Program-made: the position numbers and the translations under genes
Shown here: positions 19 to 54,129 of the stretch, in pieces
Numbering within the stretch: the stretch's first letter is position 1
Layout of the letters: the number at the start of each line of letters is the position of its first letter
Assembly (NCBI GenBank): GCA_964655855.1
Contig: CAZZPE010000004.1
Coordinates: forward strand, 18,808-82,807
Length of the DNA stretch: 64,000 nt
Reading direction: 5' to 3'
Origin: an uncultured Bifidobacteriaceae bacterium
GTDB lineage: Bacteria > Verrucomicrobiota > Verrucomicrobiia > Limisphaerales > UBA11358
Notes under the pieces: model-generated
The model's input: the letters and a program-made list of their open reading frames with translations, nothing else
The model's database searches: none
What the model was told of the DNA's origin: nothing

Positions 19-1431
19 ATGAAGCCAGTTGCCATTTTAAGTTTGCTCGCCGCCAGCGTGCTGGTGTTCGCCGGCTGCCGGGGCGTTCCCGCGCCGGGCG
101 AAAAACAGGCGCGCCGGGATTTCGGCGCGGTCGCCGGTCAATACCGGCCCGGCAACCGCCCGCCGGTTTTGCCGGAGCTGACGCCGGATTCCAGCTTGAG
201 CAATTACCTCGCGTTCGCGCTGCTGAATTCGCCGGCGGTCGCGGCGGCGTATTACGACTGGTCGGCGTCGGTCGAAAACATCACCGTCGCGCGCTCGCTG
301 CCGGACCCGCAAATCACCTTTCAATCGGACATTGCCGACATCGTGACGAGCGTGATGCCGGGTTTCCTGCAACAATTTCCCGGCCCCGGCAAGCTCAAGG
401 CGCGCGCCCGATTCGCCGTGACGGAGAGCGGCGGAAAATACTTCGCGTTTGAAAGCGCGGTGCTGCAAGCAGCGTTCAATCTGAAGCACGCCTATTACCG
501 GCTCGGCCTGCTGGACGAACAGCTTTGCCTCAAGCGCGAGACGCTTTCGTTGCTGGAAAATCAGGAGCGCGTCCTTCGTGTCCAAAACGTCGCGGGCACG
601 GCGTCGCTGCCGGAAACGCTGCGCGTCCAGAGCGAGCTGGATCGCGTCCGCAACGAAATGGCCAATCTCGAAGACTCGCGCCGGCCGCTGCTGGAAAATT
701 TCAAGGCCGCGCTGGGCCTGACGCCGCCGCAGCCCGCTCCGCCGGCACCCGCGCATTTTGAAACGAGCGGCGAAAATCCCGATGCCGAGGAGTTGTTTCG
801 TTTTGCGTTCGCCCACAATCCGCAGCTTGCGGCGATGGAAGCCGATGTGCGCGCCGCCGAGGCCGGCATCGCCGTGGCTTACAAGGAGCGCGTGCCGGAT
901 TTCAGCCTCGGCTTGATGGCCGACGCCAAAACCGCGCCGACGCTGTTCCGGCCGCTGGCGGGCATGACCTTTCCGATCTGGCGCGACAAGCTCGCGGCGG
1001 AAGTTGCGCAGGCCCAGGCGAACGAGCTGGCGGAAAAATCGCGGCTGAAGGCCGGACAGATTGACCTCGCCGTGAATTTCGCCGAAAAATCGTTTGCCTG
1101 CCGTGAAACCGGCCGCAACGTCGCGCTGATTGAAAACCAACTCCTGCCGCAGGCGCGCCAGTCATTGGAAACCGTCCGCGCCGGTTATCGCACCGGCGCG
1201 GTGGATTTTTCCGCCATGACCGACGCAGAACGGGAGCTTTTGGATTTGCAGCTTGAAGCGGTTGAAGCCCGGACCGACCGCGAGATTGCGCTGGCGGAAC
1301 TGTCGCTCATGGTCGCCGGTGTGCCGCCGGCGAACGCACCGCTGTTACCTCGTAGCAGCGGACATGAGTCCGCTCCATCTTCCCGAAATGAAAGTCGGAG
1401 CCGACTTACGTCGGCTGCCACAAAGAATTGA
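19..1431 (+). CDS. TolC-family outer membrane efflux lipoprotein (CusC/CzcC-like)
   Basis: Lipoprotein signal (VLVFAGC), two OEP-like helical repeats, first gene of an operon with MFP and RND genes. The C-terminal ~25 aa derive from a REP doublet. Confidence 0.88.
   Translation: MKPVAILSLLAASVLVFAGCRGVPAPGEKQARRDFGAVAGQYRPGNRPPVLPELTPDSSLSNYLAFALLNSPAVAAAYYDWSASVENITVARSLPDPQITFQSDIADIVTSVMPGFLQQFPGPGKLKARARFAVTESGGKYFAFESAVLQAAFNLKHAYYRLGLLDEQLCLKRETLSLLENQERVLRVQNVAGTASLPETLRVQSELDRVRNEMANLEDSRRPLLENFKAALGLTPPQPAPPAPAHFETSGENPDAEELFRFAFAHNPQLAAMEADVRAAEAGIAVAYKERVPDFSLGLMADAKTAPTLFRPLAGMTFPIWRDKLAAEVAQAQANELAEKSRLKAGQIDLAVNFAEKSFACRETGRNVALIENQLLPQARQSLETVRAGYRTGAVDFSAMTDAERELLDLQLEAVEARTDREIALAELSLMVAGVPPANAPLLPRSSGHESAPSSRNESRSRLTSAATKN
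1352..1421. repeat. GTAG-type REP-like doublet (family A) inside the tolC 3' end
   Basis: GTAGCAGCGGACATGAGTCCGCTC (1352-1375) and inverted GAGCCGACTTACGTCGGCTGCCAC (1398-1421); each unit has a 7-bp stem. Related copies at 34629, 42005 and 52114. Confidence 0.85.
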
Positions 1432-1435
1432 ATTT

Positions 1436-3157
1436 ATGAAAACAAAAATGAAATTGATTTTGGCTGGAACGCTGCTCGTCGCGGCGGTTGGCCTCGGCGT
1501 GTTCGCCGCCGACAACTCCAGCAATTTGGACGCGACCAACTCCGTCGCCACTTCCTCCGGCAAAACGCTTTACACCTGCGGCATGCACCCGTGGATCATC
1601 CAGGATCATCCCGGCAACTGCCCGATTTGCGGCATGAAGCTGGAGCCGGTCCACAAAACCGCCGGCGCTGATGCGGCGACTTCGGCTGACCGCAAAATTC
1701 TGTATTACAAGTCCACGATGATGCCGGGCGAGACCGGCACCAAACCGGGCAAAGACAGCATGGGCATGGACATGGTTCCGGTTGATGCCGGGGAGCCTGC
1801 CGCCGCGAATTCTTCCGTCATCTCGATTGATCCGGCGACGATCCAGTTGATGAACCTCCAGACGACGGAAATCGCGCGCGGCCCGCTGCGCCGGAGCATC
1901 CGCACCGTCGGAACGATTGACTACAACGAAACCGCGCTGGCGGACGTGACGACCAAGTTCAGGGGCTGGATTGAAAAACTGGACGTGGACGCCACGGGCG
2001 AACTCGTGCATCGCGGCGAGCCGCTGTTTGGAATTTATTCACCGGAACTTTACAGCGCCGAGGCGGAGTATCTGGCGGTTCTGAATTCCACGAACGATTC
2101 CGACGCATCGCCGCTGCGCGACGCGGCGCTGGAAAAATTGAAATTCTTCGACATTTCGGATGGACAAATCGCCGCGCTTGAAAAATCCGGCAAGCCGTCC
2201 AGGACACTGGAAATGCTCGCGCCGGCGGACGGGTTTGTCATTGAGAAGGACATCGTGCAGGGCCAGATGGTGGACGCGGGCATGAAACTTTACCAGTTGG
2301 CCGACCTCGGCGTCGTCTGGGTCTTCGCGCAGGTTTACGAGCAGGATTTGCCTTGCGTCCAGCTTGGCCAGGAGGCGACGGTCAAATTGTCATCGCTGCC
2401 GGACCGCGAATTCCGCGGGCGCGTCACCTACATTTATCCGAACGTGGACGAAAAAACGCGGACGGCACGCGTGCGGCTGGAGTTTGAAAATCCCGGTTAT
2501 TTTCTCAAGCCCGGCATGTTCGTCTCGGCGCAAATCACGGCGGAATTGGAACCGTCCGCGCTGCTGGTGCCGGATTCGGCGGTGCTGCGCAGCGGCGAAA
2601 AAAATACGGTGTTCGTCGCGCTGCCCGGCGGCAAATTTGACCCGCGCACGGTCGCGCTCGGCCTGGAATCCGAACATAATTTGTATGAAGTCATCAGCGG
2701 TTTGAACGAGGGCGATCGCGTGGTCACATCCGGGCAGTTCATGCTGGATTCGGAAAGCCAGTTGCGCGAGGCCATCCAGAAAATGAGCGAGCAGGTGGCG
2801 GCGACACCGTCGTCGCCTTCTTCGGCCACAAATCTAACCGCGCAAATTTCTGCCACCAGCGCCGAAAAGGAACCGGTGGTCTACGTCTGTCCGATGCCGG
2901 AGCACGTCTCCATCACCTACGACCATCCGGGCAACTGCCCCATTTGCGGCATGGCGCTGGTGCCGGTGACGCCATCCGAACTCAAACAGCTTCAGCCCGG
3001 CGGCAAGGTGCTTTACTACACCTGCCCGATGCCCGAGCACGCCAGCGTTCACGAAGACAAACCGGGGAAATGTCCGATTTGCGGCATGACTCTCATTCCG
3101 GTGATGGCCGCACCAGATGCGTCCACGAATTCAACGCCGCCGGATGCCGCGAATTAA
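1436..3157 (+). CDS. cusB: RND efflux periplasmic adaptor (CusB-like) with multiple heavy-metal-binding modules
   Basis: Signal peptide; YTCGMHP..CPICGM, YYKSTMMP..MGMDMVP and two C-terminal CPMPEH..CPICGM modules; MFP core (TVALG..GLNEGDRVVTSGQF). Start moved to ATG 1436. Confidence 0.88.
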   Translation: MKTKMKLILAGTLLVAAVGLGVFAADNSSNLDATNSVATSSGKTLYTCGMHPWIIQDHPGNCPICGMKLEPVHKTAGADAATSADRKILYYKSTMMPGETGTKPGKDSMGMDMVPVDAGEPAAANSSVISIDPATIQLMNLQTTEIARGPLRRSIRTVGTIDYNETALADVTTKFRGWIEKLDVDATGELVHRGEPLFGIYSPELYSAEAEYLAVLNSTNDSDASPLRDAALEKLKFFDISDGQIAALEKSGKPSRTLEMLAPADGFVIEKDIVQGQMVDAGMKLYQLADLGVVWVFAQVYEQDLPCVQLGQEATVKLSSLPDREFRGRVTYIYPNVDEKTRTARVRLEFENPGYFLKPGMFVSAQITAELEPSALLVPDSAVLRSGEKNTVFVALPGGKFDPRTVALGLESEHNLYEVISGLNEGDRVVTSGQFMLDSESQLREAIQKMSEQVAATPSSPSSATNLTAQISATSAEKEPVVYVCPMPEHVSITYDHPGNCPICGMALVPVTPSELKQLQPGGKVLYYTCPMPEHASVHEDKPGKCPICGMTLIPVMAAPDASTNSTPPDAAN

Positions 3158-3169
3158 GAAGGAATTTCC

Positions 3170-12010: not shown

Positions 12011-13387
12011 ATGACCCCCGCAAAAATCAAAATCCTCCGCCGGCTCAAAAAAACCCAGCCCGGCGAAATTTTTCTCGAACCCGCCACGCTCGAAAAATAC
12101 GCCGGCGACAAATGGTTCGCCGCGCACCAGCCCGACGCCGTCGCCCTGCCCCGCTCCACCGAAAGCGTCGCCGCGATTTTGAGGTTTGCGAATGAGCACC
12201 GGATTCCCGTCACGCCGCGCGGCGCCGGCCACGGCTACGTCGGCGGCTGCGTGCCCGTCCGCGGCGGCATCGTGCTCTCAATGGAGCGCATGAACCGCAT
12301 CCGGGAAATCAACGCCACGGATTTCGCCGCCGTCGTCCAGCCCGGCGTGAACACGAAAAAATTCCAGGAAGCCGTCGAGCGGCGCGGCCTGTTTTACCCG
12401 CCCGACCCCGCCAGCCGCGCGGACAACTTCATCGGCGGCAACATCGCCACCAACGCCGGTGGCCCGCGCTGCCTCAAATACGGCGTCACCCGCGATTACG
12501 TCCTCGGCCTCGAAGTCGTTTTGGCCAATGGCAACATCGTCCGGCTCGGCGGGCGCACGCACAAAAACAAGACCGGCTTTGATTTGCACCGCCTGTTCGT
12601 CGGCTCGGAGGGCTTGCTCGGCGTCATCACCGAGGCGACCTTGAAACTCATTCCGCTTCCGCCGTTCCGCGCCAACCTCGCCGTCGGTTTCAACTCCATG
12701 AACTCCGCCGTCCGCGCGTTGCAATCCATCTTTGCCGCCGGATATCTGCCCTGCGCCGCCGAACTGGCGGACGAATTCACCCTCGCCGCCGCCGCCAAGC
12801 GAACGAAAAGCAAGCGCCTGCTCGGCTGCCGGGCGCATCTCATTTGCGAGCTGGACGGACAGGAAAATTCCGTGCGCCATGAAATCGCCGCCGTGGAAAA
12901 AATTGTCCACACACAAAAGCCGCTGTTCGTCGAGCGCGGTTTTGGTGCCGGGGAATGCGAGGCCGTCTGGCAAATCCGCCGCGAATTTTCCTACGCGCTG
13001 CGCGACACCGGCCTCACGAAATTGAACGAGGACATTGTCGTGCCGCGCGGCAGGCTGGAGGCGCTTTTCAAGTTCGCCGCGGCGCTGCGGAAAAAGCACG
13101 GCATGCCCGTCGCCTGCTTCGGCCATGCCGGCGACGGCAACATCCACACGAACGTCATGGTGGATTACACGCAGCCCGGCGCCAAAGAGCGCGCCGAAAA
13201 ATGCCTCGACGAACTTTTCCGCTGGGTGATTGCCTCCGGCGGCGCCATCACCGGCGAACACGGCATCGGCCTGGCCAAGCAACGCTGGTGGCCGCAGGCG
13301 GTTTCCAAGGAATCGCACGAGCTTCACCGCGTCGTCAAAAAAGCGCTCGACCCCAAGGGCATTTTGAATCCCGGCAAGTTTGTGTAG
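12011..13387 (+). CDS. FAD-linked oxidase, GlcD/D-lactate dehydrogenase family
   Basis: PRGAGHGYVGG, GGNIATNAGG, GSEGLLGVITE, HAGDGNIH, GEHGIG. Confidence 0.9.
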   Translation: MTPAKIKILRRLKKTQPGEIFLEPATLEKYAGDKWFAAHQPDAVALPRSTESVAAILRFANEHRIPVTPRGAGHGYVGGCVPVRGGIVLSMERMNRIREINATDFAAVVQPGVNTKKFQEAVERRGLFYPPDPASRADNFIGGNIATNAGGPRCLKYGVTRDYVLGLEVVLANGNIVRLGGRTHKNKTGFDLHRLFVGSEGLLGVITEATLKLIPLPPFRANLAVGFNSMNSAVRALQSIFAAGYLPCAAELADEFTLAAAAKRTKSKRLLGCRAHLICELDGQENSVRHEIAAVEKIVHTQKPLFVERGFGAGECEAVWQIRREFSYALRDTGLTKLNEDIVVPRGRLEALFKFAAALRKKHGMPVACFGHAGDGNIHTNVMVDYTQPGAKERAEKCLDELFRWVIASGGAITGEHGIGLAKQRWWPQAVSKESHELHRVVKKALDPKGILNPGKFV

Positions 13388-13434
13388 CGTCGAGGCTGTG
13401 CCTCGACCGATTGAGCCGCAGGCTCAACGCTACA
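13383..13434. repeat. GTAG-type REP-like doublet between convergent genes
   Basis: TGTAGCGTCGAGGCTGTGCCTCGAC..TTGAGCCGCAGGCTCAACGCTACA: terminal inverted TGTAGCG/CGCTACA and two internal hairpins. Its TAG is the oxidase stop. Confidence 0.8.
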
Positions 13435-13439
13435 CCAAA

Positions 13440-15767: not shown

Positions 15768-15830
15768 GCGCGCAAAATTTGGAGGGAAACCAAGTTGAAT
15801 TCAAAGACTATTTCGCGCAAAGACGTAAAT

Positions 15831-15903
15831 GGCATGGCGCGTCGCTCCGTGCGCGCCGTCGCTGCAATCGGACGGACGGCGGGCGGAGGACTGCCCGCCT
15901 ACC
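15831..15903. repeat. GTAG-type REP-like doublet (family B)
   Basis: GCATGGCGCGTCGCTCCGTGCGCGCC and GGCGGGCGGAGGACTGCCCGCCTACC; reverse-orientation relative of 41230-41308. Supplies the rsmI TAG. Confidence 0.85.
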
Positions 15904-16600
15904 CTGCTGCGCCGTCAACCAGCACCACGAACTCGCCTTTCAGGCTGCGTTTCCGGGCGATTTCCAGCAGCTCCGCCGGTTTGCCGCGCAGAAATTCCTC
16001 GAACTTCTTCGTCAGCTCGCGCGCCAGAACGACCTGGCGTTCGGGGAACACCTCGTTCAGCTCGCTCAGCAGTTTTTCGATGCGATACGGCGATTCGTAG
16101 AAAACCAGCGTGCCGGAAACGGGCTTGAGCGATTCCAACCGGTTCCGCCGCTGGCCGGATTTGTGCGGCAAAAAACCGATGAAATGAAATTCGTCCGCCG
16201 GCAACCCGCTCGCCGTCAGCCCGGCGACGAGCGCACACGCGCCAGGCACGGCCTCGACGCGAAAACCGGCGGCGATGGCGGCCTTGACGACGCGCTCGCC
16301 CGGATCGCTGATGCCGGGACTGCCGGCGTCGGTGACGAGCGCGATTTTTTCACCGCGCCGGAGACGCTCGATGATTTCCTCGCTGCGCTTGGCTTCGTTG
16401 AACTGGAAATAGCTCAAGAGCGGTTTGGAGATTTCGAAATGCTTGAGCAACTGCCCGGAGCGCCGCGTGTCCTCGGCAGCGACCACGTCGCACTCGCGCA
16501 GGACGCGCAGCGCGCGAAGAGTGATATCCTCCAGGTTGCCAATCGGCGTGGCGACGAGGTAAAGCGTGCTGGCAGTGAGCGGCGGCAGTGCGGCGTCCAT
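15899..16600 (-). CDS. rsmI: 16S rRNA (cytidine1402-2'-O)-methyltransferase
   Basis: LYLVATPIGNLEDITLRA, AAEDTR, VTDAGSPGISDPG, RELTKKFEE. Confidence 0.95.
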   Translation of the reverse strand: MDAALPPLTASTLYLVATPIGNLEDITLRALRVLRECDVVAAEDTRRSGQLLKHFEISKPLLSYFQFNEAKRSEEIIERLRRGEKIALVTDAGSPGISDPGERVVKAAIAAGFRVEAVPGACALVAGLTASGLPADEFHFIGFLPHKSGQRRNRLESLKPVSGTLVFYESPYRIEKLLSELNEVFPERQVVLARELTKKFEEFLRGKPAELLEIARKRSLKGEFVVLVDGAAG

Positions 16601-19787: not shown

Positions 19788-20594
19788 CTACATTGCCGGC
19801 AGAAATTCCGACACGCGTTGGATTTTAATCGCCCTGCCGCTGGCGGCGTCAATATCGATCATCGCGCCGTGAAGCATCACCCGGTTTTTGGCCACTTCAA
19901 ACCGCTGCGGCATTCCGGTGAGGAATTTTTTCATCACCGGCTCGATTTCGCGGCCCAGGCAGCCGTCGTGCGGGCCGGTGAATCCGGCGTCGGTGAGATA
20001 CGCCGTGCCGCCGGGCAGAATCTGCTCGTCCGCCGTCTGCACATGCGTGTGCGTGCCCACCACCGCGCTCACCTGCCCGTCCAGCAACCGCCCGAACGCA
20101 ATCTTCTCCGAGGTCGCCTCCGCATGAAAATCCACAAAGATGATCTTTGTCCGCTCGCGCAGCCGCTTCACTTCCTCGCCAGCCAGGAGAAACGGATTTT
20201 CAAGCGGCGGCTGCATGAACGTGCGTCCCTGTGCGTTCAGAACACCAACCAAACTTTGGACTTTGGATTTTGGATTTTGGACTTCAAAAATTCCGCTTCC
20301 CTGCCCCGGCGTTCCGACCGGATAATTGAGCGGACGGAGAAAGCGTTTTTCGTTCGCGAGCAGTTCCGTCACTTCCTTCTGGTCCCACAAATGGTCGCCG
20401 CAGGTGATGACGTCCACGCCGGCGTCGAAGATTTCCCCGGCGATCAGAGGGGTTATGCCGGAACCGCCGGCGGAGTTCTCGCCGTTGGCGATGACAAAAT
20501 CGAGCGCGTGCTGTTCGCGGAGCCTGGGCACAAGGGTTTTGACCGCGCGGCGCCCCGGTTTGCCCACGATGTCGCCGATGAAGAGCAGTTTCAC
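19788..20594 (-). CDS. ymdB: YmdB-family metallophosphoesterase (TIGR00282-like)
   Basis: LFIGDIVGKPGR, NGENSAGG, DFHAEATSEK, GTHTHV. Confidence 0.92.
   Translation of the reverse strand: MKLLFIGDIVGKPGRRAVKTLVPRLREQHALDFVIANGENSAGGSGITPLIAGEIFDAGVDVITCGDHLWDQKEVTELLANEKRFLRPLNYPVGTPGQGSGIFEVQNPKSKVQSLVGVLNAQGRTFMQPPLENPFLLAGEEVKRLRERTKIIFVDFHAEATSEKIAFGRLLDGQVSAVVGTHTHVQTADEQILPGGTAYLTDAGFTGPHDGCLGREIEPVMKKFLTGMPQRFEVAKNRVMLHGAMIDIDAASGRAIKIQRVSEFLPAM
20254..20281. repeat. Four-unit heptamer array (YTTTGGA) in frame in ymdB
   Basis: CTTTGGA CTTTGGA TTTTGGA TTTTGGA; encodes VQNPKSKVQS. Confidence 0.85.
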
Positions 20595-32944: not shown

Positions 32945-32985
32945 GTTGAATCGCGGAATCGGCTGGCTGCCCTTGACGATTCAAC
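32945..32985. repeat. Degenerate octamer inverted array (GTTGAATC ... GATTCAAC)
   Basis: GTTGAATC GCGGAATC ... GATTCAAC; overlaps the stop of the endonuclease III-like gene. Same family as 47199-47272. Confidence 0.55.
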
Positions 32986-33701: not shown

Positions 33702-33852
33702 TTTTAACGCAAAGACACGCCTGCCGCAACGAAGATGGAAGATGGAGAATGGAAGATCGCCGGAAAAAATGCGCGCCGGGTTTTGCCATTCTCCACCTTC
33801 CATCCTCTATTTTCGCTTGCTGGATTGCAGCGCGGGCGTCTTTGCGTTAAAA
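33702..33852. mobile_element. MITE-like nested element: 15-bp terminal inverted repeats enclosing an inverted heptamer doublet
   Basis: TTTTAACGCAAAGAC (33702-33716) and GTCTTTGCGTTAAAA (33838-33852) are perfect reverse complements. Internal GATGGAR-like array (33734-33760) and CCATCCT-like array (33786-33813). Confidence 0.6.
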
Positions 33853-34632
33853 ATGTGCGTCATGTTCGCCTCGCTGATTTTTGATTTGCTGAACGTCGGT
33901 TACCTGATCCACAACATCTGGCTGTGGCCAGTTGTCGCGTTTCTGGTCTGGATGTTCGTTGACGCGATCCGGCGGCGGGAATGGCTTTGGGCGATTTTTA
34001 TTTTGATCGGCTGGGGCATCTCGGCGATTTTGTATTTCTTCTTCGTCTATCGCGCCAGCGCGCCGTCGGTCACGCGCGGCTTCGAGCTGCCCGGCGCGCA
34101 GAGCCGCAAACGCATCAAGGAACTTCAGGCGCAAATCCATCACCTCGACAACGCCTATCACCATTTCCAGCTCGGCGACGTTTACTTCCAGCGCGGCAAA
34201 CTGGCCGAGGCCGAACAATGCTACCGCGCCGCGCTTCAGCGCGATGCCACCGACATTGACACCCGCGCGCATCTGGGCCAATGCCTCGTCCGCCTGAACC
34301 GTCCCGCCGAGGCGCGGCCGCTCCTCGAAAGCGTCATGAACGAGAAGCCCGAACACGATTACGGCCACACCATGATGGCGCTGGCCGAAACGCTCACCGC
34401 GCTCGGCGAGACCGACAACGCGATTCAATACTGGCAGCACATCACGCAAAACCATTCCTACCCGCGCGCCAAGGTTCAACTCGCCGAGCTTTACCTCGCC
34501 AAAAAACAGCCGGAACTGGCGCGGGCGGAATTGAAGGACATCGTCAGCGACGACCAGCACGCGCCCGCCTTCCAGCGCAAGCGCGACCGCGTCTGGGTCC
34601 GCCGCGCAAAAAGCCTGATGTCGCGGCTGTAG
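33853..34632 (+). CDS. Membrane-anchored TPR protein (N-terminal PLDc_N-like TM hairpin)
   Basis: WMFVDAIRRREWLWAIFIL TM motif, then TPRs (LGDVYFQRGKLAEAEQCYRAAL). Start 33853 or 33862. Confidence 0.8.
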   Translation: MCVMFASLIFDLLNVGYLIHNIWLWPVVAFLVWMFVDAIRRREWLWAIFILIGWGISAILYFFFVYRASAPSVTRGFELPGAQSRKRIKELQAQIHHLDNAYHHFQLGDVYFQRGKLAEAEQCYRAALQRDATDIDTRAHLGQCLVRLNRPAEARPLLESVMNEKPEHDYGHTMMALAETLTALGETDNAIQYWQHITQNHSYPRAKVQLAELYLAKKQPELARAELKDIVSDDQHAPAFQRKRDRVWVRRAKSLMSRL

Positions 34633-34682
34633 CAGCGCACGTGAGTTCGCTCCAATTTGAGCCGACTCACGTCGGCTGCTAC
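34629..34682. repeat. GTAG-type REP-like doublet (family A)
   Basis: GTAGCAGCGCACGTGAGTTCGCTC and GAGCCGACTCACGTCGGCTGCTAC; its TAG is the TPR gene stop. Confidence 0.88.
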
Positions 34683-34729
34683 AATTCATTTTGATTCGCG
34701 TTCCCGGCAAAATTCCCTATCCTTTGAGC

Positions 34730-36322
34730 GTGCCAAATCTCATCGCCATCGTCGGACGACCGAATGTCGGCAAGTCCGCATTGTTCAACCGCATCATCAA
34801 GAAGCGGATTGCAATTGTGCATGACCAGCCGGGCGTCACGCGCGACCGCGTCACCGCCGAGGCTGAGTGGGGCGGAAAATCCTTCACGCTGGTGGACACC
34901 GGCGGCATCGGCCTGTTGCGCCGCGAAAAATCCGACGACATCATCATCAAGGCCGCGCTCGAACAGGTGGAAATGGCGATTGAAGCCGCCAGCGCCATCA
35001 TCCTGGTCGTCAATGTGCAGGAAGGCGTCGTGCCGCTGGACCGCGAGGTGGCGCAACATCTCCACAAGAGCGGCAAGCCAATCCTGGTGGCGGTCAACAA
35101 GGTGGACACCGAACGCGCGGAAAAAGGCGCGGACGAATTTGCCGCGCTCGGCTTCGACAAGATTTTCCCCGTCAGCGCCATTCACGGCGAAGGCATCCAG
35201 AATCTGATGAACGCAGCGGTGGCCCTGTTGCCAGTCCAAAGTTCAAAGTCCGAAGTTCAAAGTCAAGAAGCTGCCGGCGATGACTCGGCTGATTCCGCAA
35301 TCCGCAATCCGCAATCCGCAATTTTGAAGCTGGCCATCGTCGGCCGGCCGAACGTCGGCAAGTCGTCCATCATCAACGCGCTCACGCAATCCAAGCGCGT
35401 CATCGTCTCGCCGATTCCCGGCACGACGCGCGACGCGATTGACGTGCCGTTCGAGGTCGAGGCCGACGGCATCCGGCAGAAATACATCCTGATTGACACC
35501 GCCGGGATGCGGAAGACGCGGCGCGTGGACGATTCGATCGAGTATTTCAGCGTGAAACGCGCCGAGGATTCCATCGAGCGCAGCGACATCACGGTGCTGG
35601 TGATTGACGCCGAGGCCGGCATCACCGAGCAGGACAAAAAGATCGCCGACGTGATCGTCGAAAGCCGCAAGGCGTGCATCATCGTCGTCAACAAATGGGA
35701 TTTGTTCGAGGCGGAGGTTCTCAAGGCGCGCGAGGATGAAATCGGGCGGCGCAACCGGAAGGAGCGCACCGAGGGCCAGGCAAAGCAACTGACCACGCTC
35801 GGCGAGTTCGCCGAGTGGGTGCAGCGGAAACTGTTTTTCCTCGATTACGCGCCGGTGATTTTCACGTCCGCCAAGTCCGGCTTTCATCTGGAGCGGTTGC
35901 TGGAGGCCATCCGCTATGTCGCCGCGCAGTTGCAGCAGAAAATCCCGACGGCGATTTTGAACCGCACCATCAACGACGCCGTCGAGCGCCGCCAGCCGAT
36001 CAGCGCGATGGGCCACCGGCTGAAATTTTTCTACGCGACGCAGGTGCGGCAGGCGCCGCCGACCTTTCTGCTGTTCGTCAACCGCGACGAATTGTTTTCC
36101 GACCAATACAAAAAGCATCTGGCGGGCGAGCTGCGCACGGCGTTCGGCTTCGAAGGCTGCCCGATCGTGCTGGTGCCAAAGGCGCGCCCGAAGACGATTG
36201 AGCCGGTGCGGAAATTCAAGCCGGAGCACAAAAAACAAACGGGAAAAGCGGGAAGGATTGAGGCCCATCGGAAGGCGCAGCACGAAAGATATTCCCGCGT
36301 TCGCGGAAAGAAATCGCAATGA
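34730..36322 (+). CDS. der: Ribosome biogenesis GTPase Der/EngA
   Basis: Two GRPNVGKS G1 motifs, DTGG/DTAG, NKVD/NKWD, KH-like C-terminal domain. GTG start inferred. Confidence 0.96.
   Translation: MPNLIAIVGRPNVGKSALFNRIIKKRIAIVHDQPGVTRDRVTAEAEWGGKSFTLVDTGGIGLLRREKSDDIIIKAALEQVEMAIEAASAIILVVNVQEGVVPLDREVAQHLHKSGKPILVAVNKVDTERAEKGADEFAALGFDKIFPVSAIHGEGIQNLMNAAVALLPVQSSKSEVQSQEAAGDDSADSAIRNPQSAILKLAIVGRPNVGKSSIINALTQSKRVIVSPIPGTTRDAIDVPFEVEADGIRQKYILIDTAGMRKTRRVDDSIEYFSVKRAEDSIERSDITVLVIDAEAGITEQDKKIADVIVESRKACIIVVNKWDLFEAEVLKAREDEIGRRNRKERTEGQAKQLTTLGEFAEWVQRKLFFLDYAPVIFTSAKSGFHLERLLEAIRYVAAQLQQKIPTAILNRTINDAVERRQPISAMGHRLKFFYATQVRQAPPTFLLFVNRDELFSDQYKKHLAGELRTAFGFEGCPIVLVPKARPKTIEPVRKFKPEHKKQTGKAGRIEAHRKAQHERYSRVRGKKSQ
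35234..35321. repeat. Two four-unit heptamer arrays in the Der GD1-GD2 linker
   Basis: GTCCAAA GTTCAAA GTCCGAA GTTCAAA (35234-35261) and TCCGCAA x4 (35294-35321). Confidence 0.9.
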
Positions 36323-40485: not shown

Positions 40486-42063
40486 ATGCGCCCGCTGATT
40501 CACGAAATCTCCACCGCGCACACGCCCGAATCGCTCGTCGGGCAATTGCGGATTGCGGGTTGTGGATTGCGGAATGTCGTTTTGCTTCGCACGTCGCAAT
40601 TTGATTCACCTTCGGCGCGCTACTCGTTTGTCGCTGCAAATCCATTCCTGACGTTCCGCTCCTTCGGCTCGCGTTGCGAGATAACTCCGCACTCCGCATT
40701 CCGCGCTCCGCACTTCGGAAATCCGTGGCATCTTCTCGGCAGCCTGATGTCGCGCTATGAGCTGCTGGACGAAATTGACCTGCCCTTTCCGCTCGGCGGC
40801 TGCTTTGGTTTCTGGGGCTACGACCTGAAAAACTTCACCGAACCGAAACTCCCGCGCCGCGCCGTCAACGATTTGGAATTGCCAGACTGCCACGCCGGTT
40901 TTTATGACAGTCTGGTCGTCTTCGACCATCAGCTCGGAAAAGTTTTCATCGTCTCAACCGGCTTGAACGCCGACGGCTCGCGCAGCGAAAAGCGGGCGAA
41001 CGAGCAAATGGAATTTTGGAACCTGTTGATTTCAGGAAAATTGCCACCGAGACACAGAGTCGCGAAGAAACATTCCCCGCTTCCGCGCCTCTGCGGCTCC
41101 GTGGCCCAGATCATCTCAAATCTGTCACGCGACGAATTTATTTCCAAGGTTCAGCGCGCCCAGCGATACATCCGCGCCGGCGACATTTACCAGGTCAACC
41201 TGTCGCAGCGGCTGACGGTGGATTTTTGTGGTAGGGCGGGCAGTCCCCTGCCCGCCGCCGGACGAACGCAGGCCCACGAACGGCGCGCACGGAGTGACGC
41301 GCCCTACCTTCTGGCAAATTCGGACGGCTGGGAATTGTTCCAAAAATTAACCGCCGTTTCCCCAGCTCCGTTTTCGGCATTTCTCGACTGCGGCGATTTT
41401 CAGATTGCATCGTCCTCGCCGGAACAATTTTTACGCATGAGTGGTTCGCAAATCGTCACACGTCCGATCAAGGGCACGCGCCCGCGCGACCCCGACCCGA
41501 CACGCGACGCGCAGCTCGCCTACGAACTCCAGACCAGCACGAAGGAACTCGCCGAGCTGGTGATGATCACCGATCTGCTGCGAAATGATTTGGGCAAGGG
41601 CTGCGAATTCGGCTCCGTGCAAACACCGGAAATCGCCAAGCTGGAAAAATTCGCGCAGGTGCAGCACCTCGTTTCCACCGTCGAGGGTCGCCTGCGGAAC
41701 GACGTGACGCATTTCACCTCGTTCGCGGCAGCTTTTCCCGGCGGCAGCATCACCGGCGCGCCGAAATACCGCGCGATGGAAATCATTGACGAACTGGAGC
41801 CGGTTTCGCGCGGACCTTACTGCGGCGCGATCGGCTTCCTCGGCTTCAACCGCGAGAGCCAGTTGAGCATCACCATCCGCGCAGCGATCTGCCAAGACGG
41901 CCTCGCGCATTTCAACGTTGGCGCGGGCATCGTGGCGGATTCCAATCCCGAGTCGGAATACGAGGAAACGCTGGCGAAGGCCGCCGGCTTTCTGGCGGCA
42001 TTGAGTAGCAGCCGACGTGAGGAGGCTCCGACTAAAATTCCATCGAGCGATTTTGAAGTTTGA
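40486..42063 (+). CDS. pabB: Aminodeoxychorismate synthase component I (PabB/TrpE family) with several repeat-derived inserts
   Basis: GDIYQVNLSQ, SSPEQFL, PIKGTRPR, FPGGSITGAPK, VGAGIVADS; pabC-like gene nearby. Confidence 0.85.
   Translation: MRPLIHEISTAHTPESLVGQLRIAGCGLRNVVLLRTSQFDSPSARYSFVAANPFLTFRSFGSRCEITPHSAFRAPHFGNPWHLLGSLMSRYELLDEIDLPFPLGGCFGFWGYDLKNFTEPKLPRRAVNDLELPDCHAGFYDSLVVFDHQLGKVFIVSTGLNADGSRSEKRANEQMEFWNLLISGKLPPRHRVAKKHSPLPRLCGSVAQIISNLSRDEFISKVQRAQRYIRAGDIYQVNLSQRLTVDFCGRAGSPLPAAGRTQAHERRARSDAPYLLANSDGWELFQKLTAVSPAPFSAFLDCGDFQIASSSPEQFLRMSGSQIVTRPIKGTRPRDPDPTRDAQLAYELQTSTKELAELVMITDLLRNDLGKGCEFGSVQTPEIAKLEKFAQVQHLVSTVEGRLRNDVTHFTSFAAAFPGGSITGAPKYRAMEIIDELEPVSRGPYCGAIGFLGFNRESQLSITIRAAICQDGLAHFNVGAGIVADSNPESEYEETLAKAAGFLAALSSSRREEAPTKIPSSDFEV
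40546..40573. repeat. Four-unit heptamer array (TTGCGGA) in pabB
   Basis: TTGCGGA TTGCGGG TTGTGGA TTGCGGA; reverse complement of the der TCCGCAA array. Confidence 0.85.
40685..40712. repeat. Four-unit heptamer array (YTCCGCA) in pabB
   Basis: CTCCGCA CTCCGCA TTCCGCG CTCCGCA; encodes TPHSAFRAPH. Confidence 0.85.
41043..41105. repeat. Octamer-type inverted repeat in pabB
   Basis: GCCACCGAGACACAGAG ... CTCTGCGGCTCCGTGGC, imperfect inverted arms. Confidence 0.7.
41230..41308. repeat. GTAG-type REP-like doublet (family B) in pabB
   Basis: GGTAGGGCGGGCAGTCCCCTGCCCGCC and GGCGCGCACGGAGTGACGCGCCCTACC. Confidence 0.9.
42005..42028. repeat. Single family-A REP-like unit in the pabB 3' end
   Basis: GTAGCAGCCGACGTGAGGAGGCTC. 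Confidence 0.75.
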
Positions 42064-42085
42064 GCCTCGTTACAAATCGAATAGC

Positions 42086-43644: not shown

Positions 43645-43722
43645 AACGCAAAGACGCAAAGGCGCAAAGCCGAAGAGGTAAAAACATGACATTGCGCCTT
43701 TGCGTCTTTGTGTCTTTGCGTT
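43645..43722. repeat. Octamer inverted array (CGCAAAGA ... TCTTTGCG)
   Basis: AACGCAAAGACGCAAAGGCGCAAAG ... CTTTGCGTCTTTGTGTCTTTGCGTT; same termini as 33702-33852. Confidence 0.85.
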
Positions 43723-47195: not shown

Positions 47196-47198
47196 GCC

Positions 47199-47272
47199 GT
47201 TGAATTGTTGAATCGTTAAATCGGCCAACGTGCTCATTCCGATGCAACGATTCACGATTTAACAATTCACGA
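47199..47272. repeat. Octamer inverted array (GTTGAATC ... GATTYAAC)
   Basis: GTTGAATT GTTGAATC GTTAAATC ... GATGCAAC GATTCAC GATTTAAC AATTCAC; fills the lemA-M48 gap. Confidence 0.8.
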
Positions 47273-49254: not shown

Positions 49255-49277
49255 GAAACGCGGGTTGCGGGAACAAA

Positions 49278-50552
49278 TCACTCAAACCGCACGGGCTGCC
49301 CGGTGGTGGCCAGCGCCGCGTGCCAGAGCGGGCCGTCCGGATCCACGCGCTTCTGCCGTTTTGTCAGCATTCTGACCGGCACATGGATGAACTGGTCGTG
49401 GAGCAGCCCGATCATCAGGCCGGTTTTTCCGGCCATCGCGGCATGGACGGCGTTGCGGGCGTATTGGTCGCACAGGATGGCATCCTCCGAATCGGCGCGG
49501 ACGCTCCGGATGATGTAGCTTGGCTCCAGATAACGCATCACCATGGGAATCTTTTCCGCGCGGAAATAAGACTCGATTTTTTCACGGAGAAACGGCCCGA
49601 TGTCCTTGAGCCTGACGTTTCCCGAGGCGTCGCGTTCCTCGCCGTTGTTCTCCAGCAGATCCTGCCCGGCGCCTTCCGCCACCACGATGACCGCGTGCGC
49701 CCGCTTCAACGTGCGCTTCTTCAGCGCGTTAAGAAATCCGCCGGGGCCTTCCAGCTTGAACGGGATTTCCGGAATCAGGCAGAAATTCACCTCCTGGCTG
49801 GACACCGTGGCTTCCGTGGCGATGAATCCGGCATGCCGGCCCATCAGCTTGACCAGGGCGATGCCGTTCCGGACGCTGTGGACTTCCGTGTGGGCGCAGA
49901 CAATGACCCGGGCCGCTTCCTGCACCGCGGTCTGGTAGCCGAAAGTGCGCGAAACGTAAAGCACATCGTTGTCCACGGTCTTGGGAATGCCCACGACTGC
50001 CAGGGCGTGTCCGCGTCTTTGCGCCTCGCGGAAAAGTTCATAGCCGCCGCGCTGCGTGCCGTCGCCGCCGACGACCAGCAGGATGCTGACGCCGCGTTTG
50101 ATGAGATTATCCACCGCGACCCGGATGTCCACCGGACCGCGCGAAGTGCCCAGCACCGTGCCGCCTTCCTGGTGAATGTCGTCCACAAAATCGGCCGTGA
50201 GCTGGAGCGGTTCCAGTCCGTGCGAGGGGTCAAGCCCCTGATAGCCGTCGCGGAAGCCCAGCACCTGTTTCACGCCGTAAGTGTGGTGCAGTTCCAGAAA
50301 GGCGGAGCGGATGACGGTGTTCAGGCCGGGACAAAGCCCGCCGCAGGTCACGATGCCAACCCGGGTTTTTCTGGAATCAAAAAAAAGTTTCGCGCGCGGT
50401 CCGGCTAGCTCGAATAGAAAATCCTCCGGCGGCCGGACGCCGGGTTTCCGGATGATGTTCAGCGGCAGCCGCGCGTCATCGCCGACATGGTGCGGAATCG
50501 GCGACGCGAAGCGGGCCTTGCCAAGCCGGGTGATGTTTGCGGCATTATTCAC
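49278..50552 (-). CDS. pfkA: ATP-dependent 6-phosphofructokinase (group II type)
   Basis: TCGGLCPGLN, GGTVLGTSRG, GGDGT (Gly indicates ATP), PKTVDND, MGRHAG. Confidence 0.9.
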   Translation of the reverse strand: MNNAANITRLGKARFASPIPHHVGDDARLPLNIIRKPGVRPPEDFLFELAGPRAKLFFDSRKTRVGIVTCGGLCPGLNTVIRSAFLELHHTYGVKQVLGFRDGYQGLDPSHGLEPLQLTADFVDDIHQEGGTVLGTSRGPVDIRVAVDNLIKRGVSILLVVGGDGTQRGGYELFREAQRRGHALAVVGIPKTVDNDVLYVSRTFGYQTAVQEAARVIVCAHTEVHSVRNGIALVKLMGRHAGFIATEATVSSQEVNFCLIPEIPFKLEGPGGFLNALKKRTLKRAHAVIVVAEGAGQDLLENNGEERDASGNVRLKDIGPFLREKIESYFRAEKIPMVMRYLEPSYIIRSVRADSEDAILCDQYARNAVHAAMAGKTGLMIGLLHDQFIHVPVRMLTKRQKRVDPDGPLWHAALATTGQPVRFE

Positions 50553-53034
50553 GCACGACCGCTTTCAACTGGGCCTTGAACGCCTCCACAATTTTCCCGT
50601 GCACCGCGCCCACTTCGGCGTCGGTCAGTGTTTTTTCCGGCGAGCGGTAGGTGAACGCGTAAGCCAGGCTCTTCTGCCCTTCCGGCACGTGCTTGCCGTG
50701 AAACACGTCAAACAGCTCCACTGCCTCAAGATTCGCGGGCCTGGTTTTTTTGACGGCCTGCAAAACCGCCTCGTGCGTCGTCGCCTCCGGCACCAGCATC
50801 GCCACGTCGCGGCGGATGGACGGGAATTGCGGCAGCGGCTTGAACGACCGGGCCGGATTGCGCCGCGCGAGCAGTTGATCCAGATTCAGCTCGGCGAGAA
50901 AAACCGCGCCGCGCAAATCATATTTTTTCACCAGCGCGGGTGAAAGCCGGCCCATTTCGCCGAGCGGCAATTTGCCCCCCAGCGCAACCGTCGCGGATTC
51001 CAGAAACATCGCCGTGCTTTCGGCCCGCCGGGCGAACGCCACTCCGCGAACACCGAAATGTTCGAGAAATTCCTCGACCACCCCTTTCAGGTCAAACGCG
51101 TCAAACGTGGCGTTGCGCTCCTCGCCGCTCCAGAAGGGCAAGGCGCGCTGGCCGGTGATGGCGACGGCCACGCGGCGTTCTTCCTTCACCGCGCCGTTTT
51201 GCAAACTGAACACGCGCCCGATTTCGAACAGCGCCACGTCGCCATTTTTCCGGCTGACATTGTGCCGCAGCGAATGAATCAATCCCGGCAGCAAACTCGG
51301 CCGGAGCACGTCCATGTCGCTGCTCAACGGATTGGCCAACATCACGGATTCCGCATTCCGCATTCCGAACTCCGCGCTGGAAATGAGCGTCTGCCCCTGC
51401 GCCTCGTTCAAGCCGAGTCCGGTGAGGATGCGGCGCGCCTCGGCAATCTGGTCATAAACTGAATCAAAGGCGTTCGAGCCGATCGCGCCGCGCGGCGGCG
51501 TGGCGGGGATTTTCTCCACGCCGTAAAGCCGTTCGACATCCTCGATCAAATCCACCGCGCGCTTCAAATCCACCCGCCACGACGGAATCTTGAACGTGCA
51601 GACGCCGGGCGACTGCTCGGTCACCGCCAGCCCCAGCTTGGTGAGAAACGAAACCTGATCCGAATGTGAAATGCCGACGCCCAGCAAATCCTTCGACTTT
51701 GAAAAATGCAGGGTGATCTGCTTCGGCTCGGCGGGCTTCGGATAAACGTCCACCACGCCTTCGGCCAGCCGGCCACCGGCGGTTTCCAAAATCAACTGCG
51801 CCGCGCGCCGGCTCGCCCAGTCGCAAATATTCACGTCCGCACCGCGCTCGTAGCGGTAGCTGGCGTCGGTGCGCAGGCCCAGCAGCTTGCTCGTGCGGCG
51901 GATGTTCGTCGGCTTGAAATACGCGCTCTCGATGAGCACGTCCACGGTCGAGTTGTTGATCTCCGTGTTCGCGCCGCCCATGACGCCGGCAAGGGCGATG
52001 CCTTTGGTTTCGTCCGCGATCAAAAGCATTTCGCTCGTGAGCGTGCGCTCCTGATTGTCGAGCGTCTTGAATTTTTCCCAGGCGGCGGCGCGACGGACGA
52101 CGATCGTTGGAATGTGGTAGCCGACGTCAGTCGGCTCTGATTTGATTTGAGCGGACTCACGTCCGCTGCCACGAGAGATCAAATGATAATCAAACGCGTG
52201 GAGCGGCTGGCCGATTTCCAGCATGACGTAATTCGTCACGTCCACGACGTTGCTGATGCTGCGGATGCCGACTTTTTCCAGCGCCGAGCGCAGCCAGTCG
52301 GGGCTTGGCCCGATTTTCACGCCTTTGATGACGCGCGCGGTGTAACGCGGACAAAGCTCCGAGTCTTCAATTTTTACCGAAACCAAGTCAGTCGTTTTTC
52401 CGCCGATGGAAACGAGTTTGATTTCTGGAACTTTCAATGCATTCCCGGTGACCGCCGCGATTTCACGCGCGATGCCGATGACGCTGTTCAAATCCGGCCG
52501 GTTCGGCGTGACTTCCAAATCATAGACCACGTCGCCGCCGCTGCGGCCGAGATATTCGCCAAACGGCTGACCGACCTTCGCGTCTTCGCGCAAAATGAGC
52601 AGACCATCTTCCTTTTTGTGGCCGATCGCTTCGGGATCAATGAGCAATTCTTCATGCGAGCACATCATGCCGTGCGATTCCACGCCGCGGATTTTGCCGA
52701 CCTTGATGGTGAACGGTTCCTTGTCGCCGGCCTTCAACGGCAGCGACGCGCCGGGCAGGATGAGCGGCACTTTGTCGCCGGCCTTGAAATTCTGCGCGCC
52801 GCAGACGATCTGCCGTTCGCCCGTGCCGTCGTTGACGCGGCAGACGGAGAGTTTGTCGGCGTTGGGGTGCTTGTCGCGCGTGACGACCTGCGCCACGACG
52901 ATGCCGTCGAACGCGGCGGCGATCTTCTGCACGCCCTCGACTTCGAGGCCGAGCATAGTGAGCCGCTCGGTCAACTCCTCGGGCGACCAGTTGAAATCAA
53001 CGTATTGTTTGAGCCAGTTGAGAGTTACTTTCAT
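50545..53034 (-). CDS. pheT: Phenylalanine-tRNA ligase beta subunit
   Basis: MKVTLNWL, HPNADKL, TPNRPD, GQPLHAFD, DLIEDVERL, FDX-ACB C-terminus. Confidence 0.97.
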   Translation of the reverse strand: MKVTLNWLKQYVDFNWSPEELTERLTMLGLEVEGVQKIAAAFDGIVVAQVVTRDKHPNADKLSVCRVNDGTGERQIVCGAQNFKAGDKVPLILPGASLPLKAGDKEPFTIKVGKIRGVESHGMMCSHEELLIDPEAIGHKKEDGLLILREDAKVGQPFGEYLGRSGGDVVYDLEVTPNRPDLNSVIGIAREIAAVTGNALKVPEIKLVSIGGKTTDLVSVKIEDSELCPRYTARVIKGVKIGPSPDWLRSALEKVGIRSISNVVDVTNYVMLEIGQPLHAFDYHLISRGSGRESAQIKSEPTDVGYHIPTIVVRRAAAWEKFKTLDNQERTLTSEMLLIADETKGIALAGVMGGANTEINNSTVDVLIESAYFKPTNIRRTSKLLGLRTDASYRYERGADVNICDWASRRAAQLILETAGGRLAEGVVDVYPKPAEPKQITLHFSKSKDLLGVGISHSDQVSFLTKLGLAVTEQSPGVCTFKIPSWRVDLKRAVDLIEDVERLYGVEKIPATPPRGAIGSNAFDSVYDQIAEARRILTGLGLNEAQGQTLISSAEFGMRNAESVMLANPLSSDMDVLRPSLLPGLIHSLRHNVSRKNGDVALFEIGRVFSLQNGAVKEERRVAVAITGQRALPFWSGEERNATFDAFDLKGVVEEFLEHFGVRGVAFARRAESTAMFLESATVALGGKLPLGEMGRLSPALVKKYDLRGAVFLAELNLDQLLARRNPARSFKPLPQFPSIRRDVAMLVPEATTHEAVLQAVKKTRPANLEAVELFDVFHGKHVPEGQKSLAYAFTYRSPEKTLTDAEVGAVHGKIVEAFKAQLKAVVRE
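51349..51376. repeat. Four-unit heptamer array (YTCCGCA) in pheT
   Basis: TTCCGCA TTCCGCA TTCCGAA CTCCGCG; encodes AEFGMRNAE. Confidence 0.85.
52114..52172. repeat. Family-A REP-like doublet in pheT
   Basis: GTGGTAGCCGACGTCAGTCGGCTC and GAGCGGACTCACGTCCGCTGCCAC. Confidence 0.9.
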
Positions 53035-53051
53035 TTGCCGGAATGGTTTTA

Positions 53052-53070: not shown

Positions 53071-53076
53071 GTCGGA

Positions 53077-54129
53077 TTAAAATTGTTTCAAGAACCGCAC
53101 GTCGTTTTCGTAAAAGAGGCGGATGTCGTTGATGCCGTAGCGGAGCATGGCGATGCGTTCGATGCCGAAGCCGAACGCCCAGCCGGTCCACACTTCGGGA
53201 TCGTAGCCGACGGTCTCGAACACCTGCGGATGCACCATGCCGCAGCCGGCGATCTCCAGCCAGTCCTTGCCCATTTTCTTGACCATCGCGTTGGTGAAAT
53301 CAATCTCGTAGCTCGGCTCGGTGTAGCTGAAATAATGCGGTCGGAAACGGATCTTCACGTCGTCGCCCATGAGTTCGCGGAAGACGAATTCCACCGTGCC
53401 CTTGAGGTCGCCCACGGTGACGTTCTGGTCCACGTAAAGCCCCTCGATCTGGTGGAACGTGGGATTGTGCGTGGCATCGGCGTTATCGCGGCGATAGACG
53501 CGGCCTGGCACGATAATGCGCACGGGCGGCGCTTGTTTTTCCATCACGCGGATTTGGACGGACGAGGTGTGCGTGCGGAGCAAAAATTGTGGGACAGGCA
53601 TCTTGCCTGTCTCCGATTTGTTTTCTGACAGGCTGGAAGCCTGTCCCACTAAATAAAATGTGTCCTGCGAATCGCGCGCCGGGTGATCTGCCGGCGTGTT
53701 CAGCGCGTCGAAACAATGATACTCGTCCTCGATTTCCGGGCCGTCCGCGACGGCAAAGCCAATTTTTCTAAATGCACGAACAATGTCGTCCGTCACCTGC
53801 GTGAGCGGATGCAATTTGCCGAGCGCGCGGCGGCGTCCGGGCAGCGTGAAATCCGTCGGCTCTTTCGGCAGCGCGGCTTTGAGTTCCAATTCTTCGCGGC
53901 GCGCGGCGAGCGCAGCTTCGAGTTCCACCTTGGCGGCGTTGATGAGTTTGCCGGCGGCGGGCTTTTCCTCTTTCGAGAGCGTGCCGAGCTGTTTCATCAG
54001 CGCGGTGAACTTGCCGTTCGGGCCGGTCCACGCGCCCTTGATTTGTTCCAGCGCGGCGAGGTCGGACGCATTTTTCAACTCGGTCAGCGCGGCCTGTTTC
54101 AGCGGCTCTATGTCATTCAGGAGTCCCAT
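53077..54129 (-). CDS. pheS: Phenylalanine-tRNA ligase alpha subunit
   Basis: HPLTQ, FDALN.P.DHPAR..QDTFY, LRTHTS, FRPHYFSYTEPS, GWAFGFGIER. Confidence 0.97.
   Translation of the reverse strand: MGLLNDIEPLKQAALTELKNASDLAALEQIKGAWTGPNGKFTALMKQLGTLSKEEKPAAGKLINAAKVELEAALAARREELELKAALPKEPTDFTLPGRRRALGKLHPLTQVTDDIVRAFRKIGFAVADGPEIEDEYHCFDALNTPADHPARDSQDTFYLVGQASSLSENKSETGKMPVPQFLLRTHTSSVQIRVMEKQAPPVRIIVPGRVYRRDNADATHNPTFHQIEGLYVDQNVTVGDLKGTVEFVFRELMGDDVKIRFRPHYFSYTEPSYEIDFTNAMVKKMGKDWLEIAGCGMVHPQVFETVGYDPEVWTGWAFGFGIERIAMLRYGINDIRLFYENDVRFLKQF
53589..53649. repeat. GTGG-type REP-like doublet (family C) in pheS
   Basis: GTGGGACAGGCATCTTGCCTGTC and GACAGGCTGGAAGCCTGTCCCAC; each has an 8-bp stem and the termini are inverted. 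Confidence 0.9.

Follow-up and report, generated by a model that had tools for sequence, protein, structure and literature searches.

A stretch of 64,000 nt from an uncultured soil/peat Verrucomicrobiota genome (contig CAZZPE010000004.1, positions 18,808 to 82,807; the whole of it is called the window below) has a GC content of 60% and carries, among others, the genes ymdB, der, pabB, pheT and pheS, a gene for an endonuclease III-like protein with the HhH-GPD domain and an OEP/TolC-like gene, whose identities were confirmed by Pfam and PDB comparisons (Table 1). Scattered over these genes and the spacers between them are short repeats of two kinds, namely hairpin-forming doublets that resemble repetitive extragenic palindromic (REP) sequences and tandem arrays of heptamer or octamer units, and a number of them are read in frame as part of an otherwise intact protein. 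A first-pass annotation, made from the nucleotide sequence without database searches, had listed such repeats; each of its elements proved to be real, at the position it had assigned and far above chance expectation.

Table 1. Genes and repeat elements of the window, with positions counted from its first nucleotide and hairpin strength given as folding z-score.
Feature	Coordinates	Strand	z	Description
OEP/TolC-like	19..1431			gene of cusCBA-like operon; Pfam/PDB
ymdB	19788..20594	minus		gene; Pfam/PDB
HhH-GPD/EndoIII-like	32981..33691	minus		gene; Pfam/PDB
der	34691..36322			gene; Pfam/PDB
pabB	40486..42063			gene; Pfam/PDB
pheT	50545..53034	minus		gene; Pfam/PDB
pheS	53077..54129	minus		gene; Pfam/PDB
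A1	1352..1423		-4.0	family A doublet (two GTAG/GTGG-headed REP units, inverted); last 26 codons of OEP/TolC-like reading frame
x1	13381..13437		-6.9	doublet (GTGTAGCG...CGCTACAC), not in first-pass list; intergenic
B1	15831..15905		-0.6	family B doublet; intergenic, overlapping only the last codons of methylase reading frame 15899..16600
A2	34628..34684		-5.7	family A doublet; intergenic, between TPR gene and der
pabB hairpin	41045..41103		-3.1	imperfect hairpin, not in first-pass list; in frame in pabB, encodes PPRHRVAKKHSPLPRLCGS
B2	41230..41310		-2.7	family B doublet; internal to pabB
A3	42005..42075		-1.4	decayed family A doublet; C-terminal tail of pabB
A4	52114..52174		-4.4	family A doublet; internal to pheT
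C	53589..53649		-7.8	family C doublet, GTGG-headed; internal to pheS, between DTFY and LLRT
h1	20253..20284	-		(TCCAAAR)x4 on ymdB sense strand; encodes EVQNPKSKVQS; +6 aa vs B. subtilis YmdB
h2	33170..33200	-		decayed heptamer cassette in HhH-GPD/EndoIII-like gene
x3	33702..33851		-4.7 / -6.2	intergenic nested hairpin; inner arms GAAGATG x4 and complement, outer arms ACGCAAAG octamer family
h3	35233..35264	+		(TYCRAAG)x4; GD1-GD2 linker of der
h4	35292..35323	+		perfect (TCCGCAA)x4; der linker
h5	40545..40575	-		(TCCGCAA)x4, antisense; near N-terminus of pabB; +4 aa vs most relatives
h6	40684..40715	+		(TCCGCAN)x4, sense; in pabB
x2	43646..43721		-6.4	intergenic hairpin; arms are ACGCAAAG octamer arrays
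x4	47198..47269		-4.2	intergenic hairpin with TTGAATCG-type array arms; unit contains TGA
h7	51348..51378	+		(TCCGCAN)x4, antisense to pheT; no net length change vs orthologs

All eight doublet loci (A1–A4, B1, B2, C and x1) share one architecture, in which two units stand inverted to each other across a spacer. The head tetranucleotide GTAG, or its GTGG/GTRG variants, is present in every family (GTAGCAGC/GTGGCAGC in family A, GGTAGGGCG in family B, GTGGGACAGGC in family C and GTGTAGCG in x1), and the units are imperfect palindromes of 20–40 bp that form stem-loops, as is typical of REPs and of REPINs (REP doublets forming hairpins). Hairpin strength was expressed as a folding z-score against shuffled sequences, with the doublets folded as single-stranded DNA; by this measure A3 and B1 are not significant. 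The fold energy of B1 is indistinguishable from the GC-rich background, yet B1 matches B2 in sequence. The REP unit of family A, GTRGCAGCSGACGTGAGTCSGCTC (24-mer, up to 3 mismatches allowed), has 7 matches in 64 kb, where 0.00 are expected, and these correspond to three full doublets and the left unit of the decayed A3, the right arm of which has suffered a 12-nt deletion relative to the closely related locus L164 (see below). Relatives contain further copies of families A, B and C, none of which was found in 857 kb of loci from other phyla. Transposable elements of the miniature inverted-repeat kind (70–300 bp long, with terminal inverted repeats and a target-site duplication) are a poor match, the elements described here being 28–85 bp long. 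REPs are predominantly extragenic, whereas five of the eight doublets lie in open reading frames (ORFs), three of them internally (A4, B2, C) and two as tails (A1, A3). Of the doublets listed in the first-pass annotation, A2 and B1 are extragenic. The gene upstream of A2, and likewise that upstream of x1, ends with a TAG that belongs to the GTAG head: the TPR ORF 33742..34632 stops at 34630–34632 and the FAD-linked oxidase ORF 12011..13387 at 13385–13387.

The second kind of repeat is represented by ten arrays of period 7 or 8 called with Tandem Repeats Finder in the 64 kb. Three consecutive TCCGCAN units are matched 10 times in the window against 0.2 expected, and all four TCCGCAN arrays, which occupy four loci in three genes, share a single phase, A-N-(TCCGCAN)4-T; likewise, each of the three TCCAAAG-type arrays consists of four units followed by T. 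Recurrence of one unit at several loci was also seen in L010 and L086, and a stretch of 32 nt is identical between h4 in der of the window and h5 in pabB of L164, on opposite strands. Seven of the eight period-7 array loci of the window (h1–h7) are located in genes, the exception being x3, where the hairpin made of GAAGATG arrays is nested in a perfect 16-nt inverted repeat (33702–33717 / 33836–33851) of the ACGCAAAG octamer family. Remnants of this octamer family are also found at 15813–15828 and 20609–20627, the latter a candidate array that showed no folding. A wider survey found 111 period-7 arrays of at least 3 copies in 642 kb of related loci and 22 in 857 kb from other phyla; array lengths peak at 29–33 nt, and 61 of the 99 distinct arrays comprise exactly four whole units. 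Avoidance of stop codons by the array units gave no signal, 34 of 49 units being stop-free on both strands against the ~63% predicted from base composition by a rough estimate. Arrays of four to five units, some of them as inverted pairs, occur in other phyla (L066, L032, L033, L016, L067), among them arrays near pheT in a deltaproteobacterial metagenome-assembled genome (MAG; 7 arrays in 9.8 kb), a Kiritimatiellae MAG, a Caldithrix MAG and others; therefore the four-unit cassette is not restricted to this clade.

Taken over both kinds, 13 repeats lie inside ORFs of identified housekeeping genes with the frame unbroken. Eleven are internal (A4 and h7 in pheT, C in pheS, B2, h5, h6 and the hairpin at 41045–41103 in pabB, h3 and h4 in der, h1 in ymdB, and h2 in the endonuclease III-like gene), and the two C-terminal tails, A1 in the OEP/TolC-like gene and A3 in pabB, are read through to the next stop codon. 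The genes that bear inserts are single, syntenic, essential and intact, they display no intein or intron features, and all indels are multiples of three (3n). An identical PheS with its insert is encoded by 11 contigs, which come from ENA and JGI metagenome assemblies independent of each other; this speaks against an assembly artefact, one of the outcomes on which the first-pass annotation had offered to give up its claim. The closest species-level representatives are MAGs of Verrucomicrobiia/Verrucomicrobiota. Positions of the inserts were judged by sequence alignment to solved structures; for the endonuclease III-like protein the alignment to PDB entries ends just before h2.

Loci of relatives and of other phyla were fetched for comparison (designated L004, L164 and so on), of which L164/L166 represent a sister genome that can be aligned syntenically with the window over 42 kb at 91–92% nucleotide identity. 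Indels were called from alignments to solved structures and ~250 close relatives. These alignments show that the hairpin doublets of pheS, pheT and pabB are specific to the lineage and that they are indels of 3n, as the first-pass annotation had predicted. Compared with solved structures, PheS is longer by 18 residues between DTFY and LLRT and PheT by ~21 residues after HAFDYHLI, while in PabB the doublet B2 amounts to 28 extra residues at a site across which E. coli PabB is continuous. B2 is missing from the sister genome L164, the alignment showing a clean indel of 90 nt; C is lacking in L166, L010, L023 and L038 as well as in solved PheS structures and PDB homologs; A4 is absent from the PheT orthologs in L004, L010 and L011, relative to which it adds 15 aa. 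The sister genome retains A2, A3, A4, h5, h7 and x2, and the hairpin potential of A2, A4 and x2 is kept between the two genomes.

The same sites hold other elements in other relatives. Each of L005, L006, L007 and L012 has a different element at the position of C in pheS, and the position of A4 is taken in L005 and L006 by another REPIN and by a heptamer array. Among 37 relatives of PabB the B2 site is mostly empty, with family B in four and at least four other families elsewhere, and the pabB stretch at 41045–41103 varies strongly in length (peptides of the QRHRDTEE...LRLCASVA type). The turn between DTFY and LLRT spans 15–44 aa in 120 PheS homologs (87–99% identity) and accommodates many unrelated types of insert, whereas 13 homologs are without an insert (15 aa). 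At the DNA level, L167 contains a REPIN nested within the spacer of a family C-like REPIN, and in L168 the left arm of C is fused to a foreign array hairpin. Such turnover between genomes 91–92% identical, together with the structures in L167 and L168, argues that the spreading process proposed in the first-pass annotation was at work until recently; elements seem to land by preference on hairpins that are already there.

The arrays behave differently with respect to length. At the site of h7, L005 has a perfect (GCCGAAT)x4.6 array at the same codons, and the same stretch in L004, L006 and L011 is just as long but not repetitive. In L010, pheT contains two further arrays, with a net change of one residue. 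Because h7 leaves the length unchanged relative to orthologs, the word 'inserted' cannot be taken literally for every heptamer array. The in-frame position given earlier for the arrays stands, but they are neither REP-like nor simple insertions, and some replace sequence of the same length. In L164, the (TCCGCAA)4 of h4 is exchanged for CCTGAAC-type units with no indel and in the same register, CCAGACG units stand in place of h6, and the counterpart of h2 is a cleaner (TCCAAAG)x4. The h6 site in pabB of relatives holds at least six unit families as well as REPINs, with a short form devoid of the array in four relatives, and the Der linker contains 7-aa-periodic peptides of many kinds among proteins that are 75–100% identical.

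The most serious alternative is that the heptamer arrays are not mobile cassettes but ordinary microsatellites born by slippage in mutation-tolerant loops and homogenized by slippage or conversion within the array. In many prokaryotes heptanucleotide repeats outnumber all other long simple repeats, and polymerase slippage has been proposed for them, according to Mrazek 2007 as quoted in PMC4679880 and PMC4692102; a one-unit indel distinguishes the intergenic x2 of the window from that of L164, and units at one site often differ by 1–2 bases between relatives, e.g. in the TCAACYY series. However, slippage microsatellites are expected to show decaying lengths and the arrays peak at four units, and loci that are not linked share unit, phase and length. 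Moreover, the 28 nt of four units cannot be divided by 3, so that the frame of essential genes would shift if a cassette were simply inserted or a single unit gained or lost, yet the arrays of der and pabB have switched their unit in frame. Conversion or overwriting of a stretch fits the kept frame better, and on the whole the data on arrays favour copying or conversion of a whole 28-nt cassette over unit-by-unit slippage, which we hold to be possible but not likely as the source of these arrays.

Different elements at one codon position could also stem mainly from homologous recombination between diverged alleles, which would make the genes mosaics, and not from repeated independent insertion. 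The h6 units indeed do not track relatedness: L164, at 91% nucleotide identity, has CCAGACG as do the distant L097 and L141, and the ACTCCGC of the window is common to L087, L093 and L108 (73–76% amino acid identity). Nevertheless, recombination merely redistributes variants and cannot create many unrelated families or nested structures, and the flanks of B2 and C are not obviously foreign; as the main source of the variety it seems unlikely to us. Still harder to defend is selection for a function of the intragenic repeats, either as hairpins in the mRNA, by which translation would pause or mRNA stability would be set between domains, or as adaptive peptide loops. Several repeats do lie at domain boundaries (the GD1-GD2 linker of der, the domain junctions of pheT), and the preserved hairpin potential of A2, A4 and x2 in the sister genome would be in keeping with this, but orthologs work without the repeats, the sequences at one site are unrelated between relatives, the elements occur in either orientation, and the same families are intergenic elsewhere, which makes this explanation very improbable. 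The idea that the in-frame appearance is an artefact, whether of faulty assembly, of pseudogenes or of inserts being removed at the RNA or protein level, is close to refuted by the independent assemblies and the intact genes with 3n indels described above, the frameshifted pheT or pheS of some long-read MAG relatives (L007, L012, L015) being all that can be said for it.

We consider it probable that two classes of short repeat have recently proliferated heavily in these genomes, and still do so, and that selection leaves the in-frame, stop-free copies, a REP-associated tyrosine transposase (RAYT) being the likely agent for class 1. The repeats would amount to roughly one per 3 kb. Class 1 would comprise the 57–85-bp doublets of GTAG/GTGG-headed palindromes with REP/REPIN architecture, and class 2 cassettes of fixed size, with four heptamer units or about three octamer ones, single or in inverted pairs that form long hairpins. 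Both would spread through the genome, with purifying selection purging the harmful copies, and the surviving intragenic ones would be those that change the length by a net 3n bases, bring no stop codon into the frame used, and sit at tight turns, in interdomain linkers or at the C-terminus, where they are presumably translated as tolerated passenger loops or tails. Permissive sites may be few and existing hairpins seem to attract more insertions, which would explain why different families occur at one codon position across relatives, sometimes nested. Class 1 is likely to be moved by an HUH tyrosine transposase of the RAYT type encoded elsewhere in the genome, by analogy; class 2 may spread by a copy or conversion process without a known mechanism.

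Several observations weigh against this account. As stated in the first-pass annotation, the window contains no RAYT gene: Pfam analysis of 40 ORFs of the window revealed no PF01797 (Y1/RAYT) match. A regular-expression screen for the PNHxH...YIxxNP motif found no match in ~1.5 Mb of fetched loci, but it is crude and too weak to count as absence. The insertions were not clean: codons of the ancestral loop are missing at C, where 18 nt (NTADKR) are gone, and at B2, where the flanking codons differ, and comparison with L164/L166 reveals no target duplication at the junctions of either. The lost ancestral codons and the lack of target duplication imply that C and B2 arose in several steps or else not by simple insertion. 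Similarity of array units is 14–21% within a locus and 12% between loci, a modest excess, in a test of genome-specific units that is confounded by orthologous arrays between loci. Finally, an AlphaFold2 model of PheS (from 52 homologs, all at least 87% identical) reached a mean predicted local distance difference test (pLDDT) score of only 53, and the inserts could not be mapped onto structure.

As to the origin of class 2, one can imagine a dedicated process that uses a short template to write or convert ~28 nt in one go and overwrites a coding loop with no change of length or register. Although we give this proposal little credence at present, if true it would explain the kept frames, the differences in all four units between sister genomes, and the four-unit rule across phyla regardless of the unit.

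The closest precedent for class 1 is found in the same phylum. REPs have been sorted into GTAG and CGTC superfamilies, and among the genomes surveyed that of the Verrucomicrobium Opitutus terrae is highly enriched in GTAG REPs, with the highest count of all (Di Nocera, De Gregorio & Rocco 2013, BMC Genomics 14:522, PMC3733652). Its families are GTAG-17 to -20, of which GTAG-20 has GTGG heads; more than half of its intragenic REPs are dimers that encode 20–30 aa, some genes being hit twice, and O. terrae is mentioned ~70 times in the supplementary table of that work (PMC3733652). Our elements agree with these REPs in the GTAG head and its GTGG variant, in stems of 6–9 bp, in inverted dimers with short spacers, in the presence of several families per genome, and in dimers within ORFs that encode 20–30 aa, sometimes two per gene and including genes of RNA/tRNA enzymes. 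Even the style of the peptides is alike (VGPALAAGREQRARLPAAGERPPY in O. terrae, GRAGSPLPAAGRTQAHERRARSDAPY in the window). They come, however, from a different, uncultured lineage, and the likeness is one of description, not base by base. What the window adds to the O. terrae report is gain, loss, replacement and nesting at fixed codons, seen at the level of orthologs, and the coexistence of REPs with in-frame heptamer cassettes.

REPIN-RAYT systems (Bertels & Rainey 2011, PMC3116915; Nunvar 2010) are similar in that two inverted REPs and a spacer form one long hairpin and that multiple families are vertically inherited within a clade. Classical REPINs, however, are extragenic, with each family tied to a flanked single-copy RAYT gene, which sets them apart from doublets that reside largely in ORFs. 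Rickettsia palindromic elements, said to have been described by Ogata and coworkers in 2000, reportedly form surface loops in the products of functional genes, whose reading frame they leave intact. They share with our elements the in-frame position of palindromes in functional genes, a resemblance that is functional only. Their sequences are unrelated (RPE-4/6 belong to the CGTC class, PMC3733652), RPE-1 is longer, and they occur in an obligate intracellular alphaproteobacterium whose genome is reduced. Given the intragenic GTAG REPs of O. terrae, the hairpin half of our observations is of an already known kind, and Rickettsia, which the first-pass annotation had put forward, is not the nearest parallel.

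For the arrays, the comparison leads to the short tandemly repeated repetitive (STRR) sequences of cyanobacteria, reportedly described by Mazel in 1990 as dispersed heptamer arrays. The small dispersed repeats of Nostoc and Anabaena, attributed to Elhai and coworkers in 2008, are said to be very short, mobile-looking, nested and associated with tandem heptamers. These belong to a different phylum and differ in sequence, and are likened here by description only. GGGAATC/GGGGAYT arrays in Xanthomonas and Nostoc are intergenic, and their four-unit bias was attributed to G-quadruplex formation (Rehm 2015, PMC4692102); TAACTGA arrays were found in Beggiatoaceae (MacGregor 2015, PMC4679880). With the arrays of these bacteria ours have in common the 7-nt unit, the number of about four units, the presence of the same unit at many loci, inverted pairs and variation in sequence and length between close relatives. 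In contrast to those arrays, which are intergenic and under-represented in coding DNA, the units described here have no G-runs, lie in coding frame and change at a fixed site. The heptamer arrays in coding DNA are the less ordinary half of our observations: hairpin repeats within genes have already been reported for a cultured relative, and such a position had not been described for the 7-base arrays, our search of the searchable literature having yielded no report of heptamer arrays in coding DNA or in Verrucomicrobia.

Other features of the window deserve mention. A cusC/cusB/cusA-like heavy-metal efflux operon of the resistance-nodulation-division (RND) type is located at 19–6418, and the three HMBD metal-binding repeats of its CusB-like protein (1436..3157) correspond to DNA repeats at 1564–1652, 2881–2969 and 3016–3104. 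Similarly, three 117-nt direct repeats at 55992–56534 encode SBBP beta-propeller repeats of the DUF7948 protein 55692..58568. An ORF of 844 aa on the minus strand (27055–29589) has no Pfam match and sits in the part of the window lowest in GC (0.55–0.575); its counterpart in L164 is an 832-aa gene, likewise without Pfam hits. A 67-nt direct repeat, 93% identical, is present at 62251–62317 and 62890–62956, with a spacing of 639 nt. Copy 2 forms the 3' end of the minus-strand ORF 62891..63493 (the counterpart of a sigma-70-like gene in the syntenic L166), and copy 1 lies beyond an antitoxin/ParE-like pair, adjoining dnaB; the region 62251–62956 looks like the insertion of a toxin-antitoxin cassette that duplicated the end of a host gene. 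A VapB/PIN toxin-antitoxin pair is also found in L167 (1421–1689) and L168 (1436–1686), directly downstream of pheS, the position that pheT occupies in the window.

The clade to which the window belongs constitutes a natural high-density insertion scan of essential enzymes, in which PheS, PabB, PheT and Der accommodate dozens of unrelated peptides of 5–30 aa at the same turn, in proteins that elsewhere are 87–99% identical, and which should be useful for deriving rules of protein engineering. The same inserts inflate the apparent diversity of proteins in metagenomic catalogues. It will be interesting to use this clade to test whether REPINs target existing hairpins. As for the arrays, heptamer repeats can live in coding DNA, and their preference for four units is independent of G-quadruplex potential; since the units found here are without G-runs, the G-quadruplex account of the four-unit bias is not general. 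The origin and spread of heptamer arrays, a question that has stood since the STRR description of 1990, are thereby reopened.

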